A stretch of 16,523 bases of DNA from a virus. Its lineage: Duplodnaviria; Heunggongvirae; Uroviricota; Caudoviricetes. Positions 15,171 to 16,523 of this stretch are shown here, in pieces (position 1 is the first letter of the stretch; each line of letters opens with the position of its first letter). Location: IMG/VR virus record IMGVR_UViG_2802429251_000002; one strand, 5' to 3'. The position numbers and the translations under genes were made by a program. A model generated the notes under the pieces. The model was not told the origin of the DNA. It did no database searches and saw nothing but the letters and a program-made list of their open reading frames with translations.

Positions 15171-16474
15171 TTTCCACTGGTCAGGCTACCCCGCAGCAGG
15201 TCTGCTTTGCGGTGGGCGCGTTCAGTGGTTTCACTGATTCTCTGTGCGTGCTCTGCGTCACGGATGGCGCGCAGCATGTCAGAAAGCACGGTAACGGGGG
15301 TTTTCATGGTGTTCTGGTCCTGCTGAAGTGTGGATGCCAGGTGTGCGGCGGCTTCGGGGTCTGATGCCCCCAGCTGTTCCAGATAGCTGGCGACCGGGTT
15401 ATGGCGGATCTCCGTGCTGCTTACGCCGTGATTACGGCTCAGGCGCTGCCAGAGTTGCGTGATTCGGCTGTCCGGGCGGGTATCTGGTTTGCGTACAATT
15501 TCAAATCCCTGCGGTGCAATGATGCTGCCGTCAACGTACAGACTGCCGCCCCGTAACAGGTGCTGCATCTGCTGTTCACCGATATGCAGGCCGAGAGATT
15601 CAGCAGACTCCCGCCATTCTTTAGCGAGTAACTCGTGGTTATCAGGCAAAGGCCGTGGCTGTTTGCGGCTCTGTGTCCAGTTCTGCATTTCATCACTGCT
15701 GTTTTTTGCCTGTTTGTCACGCAGCGAACGCATCAGCGCCCGGCGTTCGTGCCGTTTCAGTGAGCGCATCCATTCATTCACGTCAACGCCGTCAGGAAGC
15801 TGCGGCCACGGTGCTGGCCGTTCTTCCGGCTGTTCTGTCCCGTTGTTGTCCGTTTCCTGTACACGGGGACAGTTATTGCCACGAGTCCAAGGGGCGGCAG
15901 GGCCGCCCTGAAGGTCAAAACCATTTTCGTGGGAGCTGTCTTCCGCTTCCGGTTTGCGTCTTACCAGCTTCCAGTTATCCGGATGCGTGCATACGCGGGA
16001 AGACTCCCCGATGAGCGGCGACCAGATCCCGTAAATCTGTACGCTCTGTTCGCCGTAATCGTTCAGCTCATCTGCGAGGTCGTAGGCGGTGCGAATCAGG
16101 TAGTCTTGGCGTGGAACAAGTACGCCGCCCTGTTTCTCTATGTAGGTGGCAAAACATCCGGCATCAGCGGCAGCGAGTACCGCATCCATTGCGTCATCCT
16201 TCAGCCGTTGCGGGCCTTCCGGGTTGCGTGCCATCTGGCTGGCAAGGCGGCGGAGTTCACGCCACACCTGACGGGAGGGGATACCAAAGAACTGGAACTG
16301 GCGGACACGGTGAAGGCGCGCCCAGCCGATGGCGCGTTCCACGCTCTCGGCCATTGATTTTCCGGTTTCGTGGTCAACGCGTGGCTTGCCCGTTTTCGGG
16401 TCGATGCCATCTACGGCGCGGCTGTCCAGGTTCTTTCCGATGTAGGTGTCAACGACGGATGAAAAGTGATCCAC
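15104..16474 (-). CDS. Replication initiation protein (P2 gpA-like), 456-aa ORF; N-terminal boundary unresolved
   Basis: Large minus-strand ORF in the position of the replication gene in the P2 order (rep gene, variable locus, cos, Q); hydrophilic C-terminal half. The track start is GTG at 16474 immediately after an in-frame TAA, while a different frame is open from the window edge to about 16447, so the gene may be longer, frameshifted or preceded by another gene. The gpA assignment rests on position and size, not recognised motifs. Confidence 0.5.
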   Translation of the reverse strand: MDHFSSVVDTYIGKNLDSRAVDGIDPKTGKPRVDHETGKSMAESVERAIGWARLHRVRQFQFFGIPSRQVWRELRRLASQMARNPEGPQRLKDDAMDAVLAAADAGCFATYIEKQGGVLVPRQDYLIRTAYDLADELNDYGEQSVQIYGIWSPLIGESSRVCTHPDNWKLVRRKPEAEDSSHENGFDLQGGPAAPWTRGNNCPRVQETDNNGTEQPEERPAPWPQLPDGVDVNEWMRSLKRHERRALMRSLRDKQAKNSSDEMQNWTQSRKQPRPLPDNHELLAKEWRESAESLGLHIGEQQMQHLLRGGSLYVDGSIIAPQGFEIVRKPDTRPDSRITQLWQRLSRNHGVSSTEIRHNPVASYLEQLGASDPEAAAHLASTLQQDQNTMKTPVTVLSDMLRAIRDAEHAQRISETTERAHRKADLLRGSLTSGNKKQTETGLTNPVNEQKTCRDI

Positions 16475-16523
16475 TTATATCTCCACCAACGGCCCAATAT
16501 TGATCCACCGTTTTACTCAGGAT

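Follow-up and report, generated by a model that had tools for sequence, protein, structure and literature searches.

Genes and features at the right end of the contig

The window analyzed here (16,523 bp) is the whole of contig PTRX01000047.1 (GCA_002966045.1), as established by exact look-up of its 456-aa product. Toward its right edge, the minus strand carries the end of an insertion sequence, the 3' part of a phage replication gene (rep), and two genes of a plasmid-type segregation system, with the following features:

16513..16523, minus strand: last codons of istB and its TAA stop (16515-16513); the pMT1 istB end, 1888, corresponds to window 16513
16447..16523, minus strand: right-terminal 77 bp of IS100 (IS21 family), with 77/77 nt identity to IS100 copies
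16442..16446, minus strand: CCTAC, presumed 5-bp target-site duplication (right copy), the first 5 bases past the IS terminus
15104..16474, minus strand: 456-aa chimeric ORF, from GTG (16474-16472) to the stop at 15106-15104
15104..16446, minus strand: 3' remnant of a gpA-family gene for a P88-type replication endonuclease, from codon 489/490 through 935 and the stop (15106-15104)
15869..15898, minus strand: probable ori (nick-site region) in the rep remnant, 25/30 nt alike with the P2 nick region
14068..15027, minus strand: parM, actin-like segregation ATPase (Pfam StbA_N, 3.7e-82; ParM_N, 1.3e-68)
13752..14063, minus strand: parR/StbB-like plasmid stability gene (Pfam Plasmid_stab_B, 3.1e-23)

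Near the edge the minus strand reads ...GAG ATA TAA GTG GAT CAC..., so that the GTG of the 456-aa ORF directly follows an in-frame TAA (16477-16475), as the first-pass annotation had described. A second minus-strand frame is open from 16523 (ILSKTVDQYWAVGGDISGSLFIRR*) to a TGA at 16451-16449, which agrees with the stop that had been placed near 16447; the size then quoted for P2 gpA (about 760 aa) is likewise borne out by the record (761 aa). The 456-aa ORF is composed of nine IS100-encoded residues (VDHFSSVVD), a junction codon, and the C-terminal part of Rep. Its GTG sits within an IS100 GTGGATCA repeat, and a GGAG lies six bases 5' of that GTG. The gene caller of the public collection also called this ORF.

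The IS100 terminus

Window bases 16447-16523 match IS100 at 77/77 nt (E = 2e-31), an identity shared with the IS100 of Yersinia pestis pMT1 (positions 1878-1954) and three other copies; the matching copies include those of an E. coli plasmid and of the phage record 500465-1. In pMT1 the element occupies bases 1-1954 (1954-bp element), and the annotated istB ends at 1888. The third frame of the window edge reads ...PE*, which is the end of istB (the IS100 helper ATPase), and the right end of IS100 that follows (16512-16447) is non-coding, with the istB stop 66 bp before the terminus. The terminus itself, ...CGTTGACA, finishes at base 16447, and istA-istB are oriented on the same strand as rep. 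IS100 ends in ...TTGACA on the right and TGTAACG on the left, i.e., it has the 5'-TG...CA-3' form. The GTGGATCA repeat is found twice within the 77 bp (16509-16502 and 16474-16467) and once near the IS100 left end; by analogy with IS21, terminal repeats of this type are presumed to be binding sites for IstA.

The window and the IS100 of pMT1 and of E. coli plasmids and chromosomes thus have the same terminal 77 bp, the same distance of the istB stop from the end (66 bp), the same ...TTGACA, and the same GTGGATCA repeats, whereas only the element end lies in the window and its site in a P88-type rep was not seen in the collections searched. On 77 bases alone, a close IS21-family variant that shares this end would look the same as IS100.

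Both reading frames singled out in the first-pass annotation are accounted for by this terminus. The second open frame is the non-coding 66-bp IS100 end downstream of istB, and its TGA falls within the terminal TTGACA. The 456-aa ORF is a read-through accident, in which a GTG in the terminal repeat of IS100 shares its frame with the rep remnant by chance; it may be expressed through read-through from istAB, and nothing suggests a function for it.

On the minus strand, the IS100 terminus (16447-16452) is also a perfect outward-facing -35 hexamer, TTGACA, recalling the promoter formed at tandem-IS21 junctions. A hybrid outward promoter built on this hexamer was considered and rejected: a matching -10 is absent from the rep remnant, and a promoter scan returned 0 promoter-like sites.

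The rep remnant and its intact relatives

The sequence beyond the IS terminus belongs to a gene that is intact elsewhere. E. coli FACU 2024 has an intact rep that matches window 16448-15104 at 1345/1345 nt, and the remnant is one base off each of four other chromosomal copies. At the protein level, ORF residues 10-456 are residues 489-935 of WP_014639488.1, the intact 935-aa Rep of the E. coli IHE3034 prophage (447/447 aa), and 435/447 aa are shared with the Rep of P88 (940 aa). Over window 15000-16448, which includes the start of parM, P88, P884B11, and other Xuanwuvirus records are ~96-98% identical in nucleotide sequence. P88/Xuanwuvirus and IHE3034 also have the same downstream gene order as the window (parM, parR-like, ead/Ea22, portal, terminase); they differ from it in that, in the window, codons 1-488, with almost all of Phage_GPA, are not adjacent to the remainder of the gene, and an IS100 end stands in their place.

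Phage_GPA (PF05840) covers residues 179-498 of the 935-aa Rep (E = 9e-131) and 179-503 of P88 Rep, with E-values of 1e-128 to 1e-131 across the intact 935/940-aa proteins. All but the last 10 residues of this domain are upstream of the break and outside the window; in Pfam, nothing above threshold was found on the C-terminal part of Rep. As to the alignment to the gpA family that had been proposed as a check, the ORF is collinear with the C-terminal part of intact Rep, but it has no Phage_GPA match. A search of solved structures with full-length Rep returned no matches.

P2 gpA (761 aa) is a cis-acting rolling-circle initiator with the ori inside its own gene. The intact 935-aa Rep is 31% identical to it over ~680 residues, up to Rep residue 739, and the P88-type protein is ~175 residues longer, mostly at the C-terminus. 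The alignment spans residues 489-739, i.e., it crosses the position of the junction.

These comparisons bear on the proposal that the locus holds two truly distinct genes, one of them ending independently near 16447 and the other coding for a native protein of 456 aa from a shorter family. An independent gene does end upstream, and the 456-aa ORF was called as a gene in the public collection. However, the upstream gene is istB, which ends at 16513, and the ORF is not a protein in its own right: residues 1-9 are IS sequence and the rest is residues 489-935 of a 935-aa protein, for which homology to P2 gpA is continuous across the junction position in the intact proteins. Furthermore, all of the relatives listed in the 90% protein cluster of the ORF (14/14) are annotated as 'partial', whereas the full-length form of Rep belongs to a cluster of 16,881 sequences. 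The exact 456-aa protein occurs in one contig only among ~15 billion proteins. The ORF is a fragment of a gpA-family member, not a functional member itself, and we consider two separate genes scarcely credible.

A junction between the catalytic tyrosines

The boundary between the two unrelated DNAs is sharp, at 16447/16446. When window 15000-16523 was compared with phage genomes by megablast, query bases 76/77-1524 matched rep and parM, and bases 1-77 matched IS100, in phage genomes in which these 77 bases are annotated 'IS21-like element IS100kyp family helper ATPase IstB' or transposase. The same split was obtained against 5,426 complete E. coli genomes and the PLSDB plasmids. No match spanning the junction (at least 80% of a 324-base query) was found in the 5,426 E. 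coli genomes or PLSDB, and rep is uninterrupted in every complete-genome match.

In a three-way DNA alignment, rep sequence gives way to IS sequence exactly at ...GCCA|CCTAC. Intact genes read ...ACC AGC TAC ATC GCC ACC TAC ATC GGA AAG AAC..., and in the window this becomes ...CGTCGTTGACA|CCTACATCGGAAAGAAC. The ...GGCACGCCAACCAGCTACATCGCCA that precedes the junction position in intact rep is absent from the window. The junction falls after Rep codon 488, between two tyrosines (S-Y486-I-A-T | Y490-I-G-K-N). By BLASTP of intact Rep against P2 gpA, S-Y486-I-A-T-Y490-I-G-K-N aligns with G-Y450-I-A-K-Y454-I-S-K-N, so that a Y-I-A-x-Y-I-x-K-N motif is common to the P88-type Rep and P2 gpA; we take Y450 and Y454 of P2 gpA to be its two active-site tyrosines. 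This pair is whole in P2, whereas the gene in the window is broken between the two: the window encodes the second tyrosine only (TYIGKN), along with a C-terminal part that is poorly characterized, and the first (SYIA) is beyond the IS junction. Literature on the P2 A tyrosines and on IS100 target preference yielded nothing directly usable.

The five bases that adjoin the IS terminus, CCTAC (16446-16442), cover part of codon T489 and all of Y490. IS21-family elements usually make target duplications of 4-8 bp, and we infer that CCTAC is the right copy of such a duplication.

The first-pass annotation had entertained a frameshift or sequencing error within a contiguous rep gene. Two frames do overlap at ~16450-16475, which superficially resembles a frameshift. 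However, 16449-16523 shares nothing with rep in any frame, 16447-16523 is 100% IS100, and the ...GGCACGCCAACCAGCTACATCGCCA of the intact gene is missing 5' of the junction. Thus, an error of either kind is hardly tenable. What stands of that annotation is that a gpA-family gene is cut here and is very probably inactive; the cause that it proposed does not stand, as the DNA upstream of 16447 is IS100.

Contig ends and the possibility of misassembly

The contig stops 77 bases into IS100. A k-mer of 77 is a common largest size in short-read assemblers, and the stop is plausibly tied to it. Short-read graph assemblies typically end contigs inside multi-copy elements in this way, and the contig edge is a matter of the repeat, not biology.

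The rep-IS100 join might instead be a chimera created at the contig end during assembly and absent from the genome itself. It does lie at a contig end, it comprises exactly 77 repeat bases, and the junction was seen in no other genome searched. Against this, graph assemblers stop one k-mer into a repeat precisely when reads link the unique sequence to that repeat, and the boundary lies precisely at the real end of IS100, ...TTGACA, where transposition, unlike a random chimera, would put it. An assembly artefact is therefore very unlikely.

The other contig end (window 1-390) lies in a mosaic tail-fibre gene. Bases 1-294 match a side tail fibre gene in the record of JL22 (99.6 kb), an unrelated phage, with 93% identity, and similarity to the P88/P2 tail fibre begins only at ~380-390; this end is likely to be a recombination joint that caused the assembly to break there. 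The other 16.4 kb shows synteny with complete phages of P88 type (96-98%).

Origin of replication, segregation genes, and other neighbors

In P2, the 'nick site at ori' is annotated at P2 29892, within gene A (~codon 620). The P2 nick-region sequence (GCCGCGCCTCGGAGTCCTGTCAATAACTGT) resembles window 15869-15898 at 25/30 nt despite 31% protein identity, and the rep remnant probably still carries the ori of P88-type phages, as judged from this likeness. Base 15899, which adjoins the ori-like stretch, is the sole difference from the IHE3034 rep allele.

The segregation gene parM lies immediately downstream of rep (76-bp spacer), and occupies the same place beside the intact rep of P88 and of the IHE3034 prophage. 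In P88 and in all five of the chromosomal prophages for which annotation was read, the intact rep is followed by both parM and the parR-like gene, and the block from rep to portal is present at at least 80% coverage in 622 of the 5,426 complete E. coli genomes. In P2, parMR is missing from the part of the record read downstream of gene A. The suggestion that a defective rep would fit a phage relying on other maintenance functions is contradicted by these data: because the pair stands beside intact rep genes and the block recurs in these genomes, it is standard equipment for phages of this group and not a response to loss of rep. The parMR cassette is unrelated to the rep defect.

Elsewhere in the window, a 440-aa ORF (9882-11204, minus strand) is antisense to the gene for the large subunit of terminase (583 aa; 9810-11561, plus strand). 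This ORF is almost certainly spurious, the shadow of a coding region rich in GC.

The left junction

The features described above are best explained by an IS100 copy that adjoins, in the same orientation, the gene for the replication initiator of a P2-like prophage of P88 type (Xuanwuvirus) integrated in E. coli. The junction is placed after codon 488, with CCTAC next to the IS100 end, and splits the active-site tyrosines of a rolling-circle nickase; the short-read contig, ending inside the multi-copy IS100, retains only the 3' 447 codons of rep. By simple insertion, the far side should hold a complete IS100 together with the 5' half of rep. If so, ...AGCTACATCGCCACCTAC followed by TGTAACGAACGGTGCAATAG is expected in some contig or read, and another contig of the same assembly should end ...ACCAGCTACATCGCCACCTAC then TGTAACGAACGGTGCAATAGTG. 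If CCTAC was duplicated (5 bp), Rep 1-490 followed by CNERCNSDPHPTPEIRSRG* would be the product encoded upstream.

A pattern for the left junction (rep codons 485-488, 0-12 nt, IS100 left end) gave 0 hits in genome contigs, where a control for the known right junction also gave 0, as it did in viral contigs; this places the source genome outside both collections and leaves the empty left-junction scan without weight. None of six predicted N-terminal chimeras (3-8 bp duplications) was found by exact protein look-up, whereas the control 456-aa ORF and the 935-aa Rep were both found; such a look-up requires an exact match, and so depends on an identical N-terminal sequence, on start-codon choice, and on the IS left end. 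A homology search with Rep 1-490 plus CNERCNSDPHPTPEIRSRG returned only ordinary full-length Reps or Reps left partial at contig ends, none of them with an IS tail.

IS copies commonly give rise to adjacent deletions and to inversions, and a deletion or inversion through IS100 would yield the same window. IS100 would then adjoin codon 489, the first half of rep would have been lost or moved, possibly along with the early region of the prophage, and the prophage would be a truncated remnant. That the left junction was not found, and that the predicted chimeras are absent from a protein collection in which the controls are present, fits such a rearrangement. However, the absence of the chimeras is weak evidence given the need for an exact protein match, and a remnant 100% identical to an intact allele, in 16.4 kb syntenic with complete phages, fits a very recent single event. 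We regard IS100-mediated deletion or rearrangement as unlikely, and simple insertion of IS100 as probable.

A second IS100 in a rep gene

Phage 500465-1 (Wadgaonvirus, NC_049342) carries a complete 1954-bp IS100 in its gpA-family rep gene (record stretch L002, 1628-3577). As in the window, IS100 is in a gpA-family gene of a P2-like prophage; unlike in the window, it lies in reverse orientation and near residue 755. The insertion in 500465-1 is an independent event. In that record, istB and rep are each split into several CDS, suggesting indel errors.

Targeting of rep genes, or of a specific sequence, by IS100 was considered and rejected. Among 78 distinct flanks of the IS100 right end (76 from IMG/VR contigs, 2 from plasmids), there is a mild T/A excess at flank positions 2-3 only, and no strong consensus. 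Only one of the IMG/VR contigs with IS100 has a gpA-type gene, and that gene is >7 kb from the IS end. The position of the IS100 insertion in a catalytic motif is best taken as chance. In the ColV-type plasmid pRHB14-C23_2 (L004, 2578-2610), the flank of an IS100-like right end resembles window 16446-16420 (~20 of 25 nt by visual count of the alignment, allowing for a 2-nt gap), which is above our chance expectation.

Consequences for the prophage

We conclude with high confidence that an IS100 end disrupts the rep gene of a P88-type prophage at this junction. Without full-length Rep, the prophage should fail to start its own rolling-circle replication, and Rep function has presumably been lost, as far as can be read from the gene structure. 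P2 A acts in cis, and a prophage without an intact Rep should for that reason not replicate after induction. The event is recent, because the remnant has no mutation relative to the intact allele.

It is highly improbable, by our assessment, that the gene is split and yet not null, with the two halves made separately and able to keep or reconstitute nicking and replication, or with the C-terminal half acting alone. With a 5-bp duplication, the upstream fragment would comprise Rep 1-490, with both tyrosines, followed by a 19-residue IS tail, and would keep all but the last 8 residues of Phage_GPA; the downstream fragment would have the GGAG, the in-frame GTG, read-through from istAB, and the ori-like nick site. 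A lone C-terminal half might serve, for example, as an interference factor against incoming P88-type phages.

On the preferred reading, disruption of rep by IS100, every component of the locus is already known; only this insertion allele is new, and it is absent from all collections searched. IS disruption of prophage genes is routine, and the locus represents ordinary gene disruption and no novel type of gene. In annotation, the 456-aa 'gene', being a chimeric fragment, should be labeled an IS100-disrupted pseudogene. For the strain, the prediction is of a P88-type prophage that has been freshly crippled and that is probably without replication after induction.
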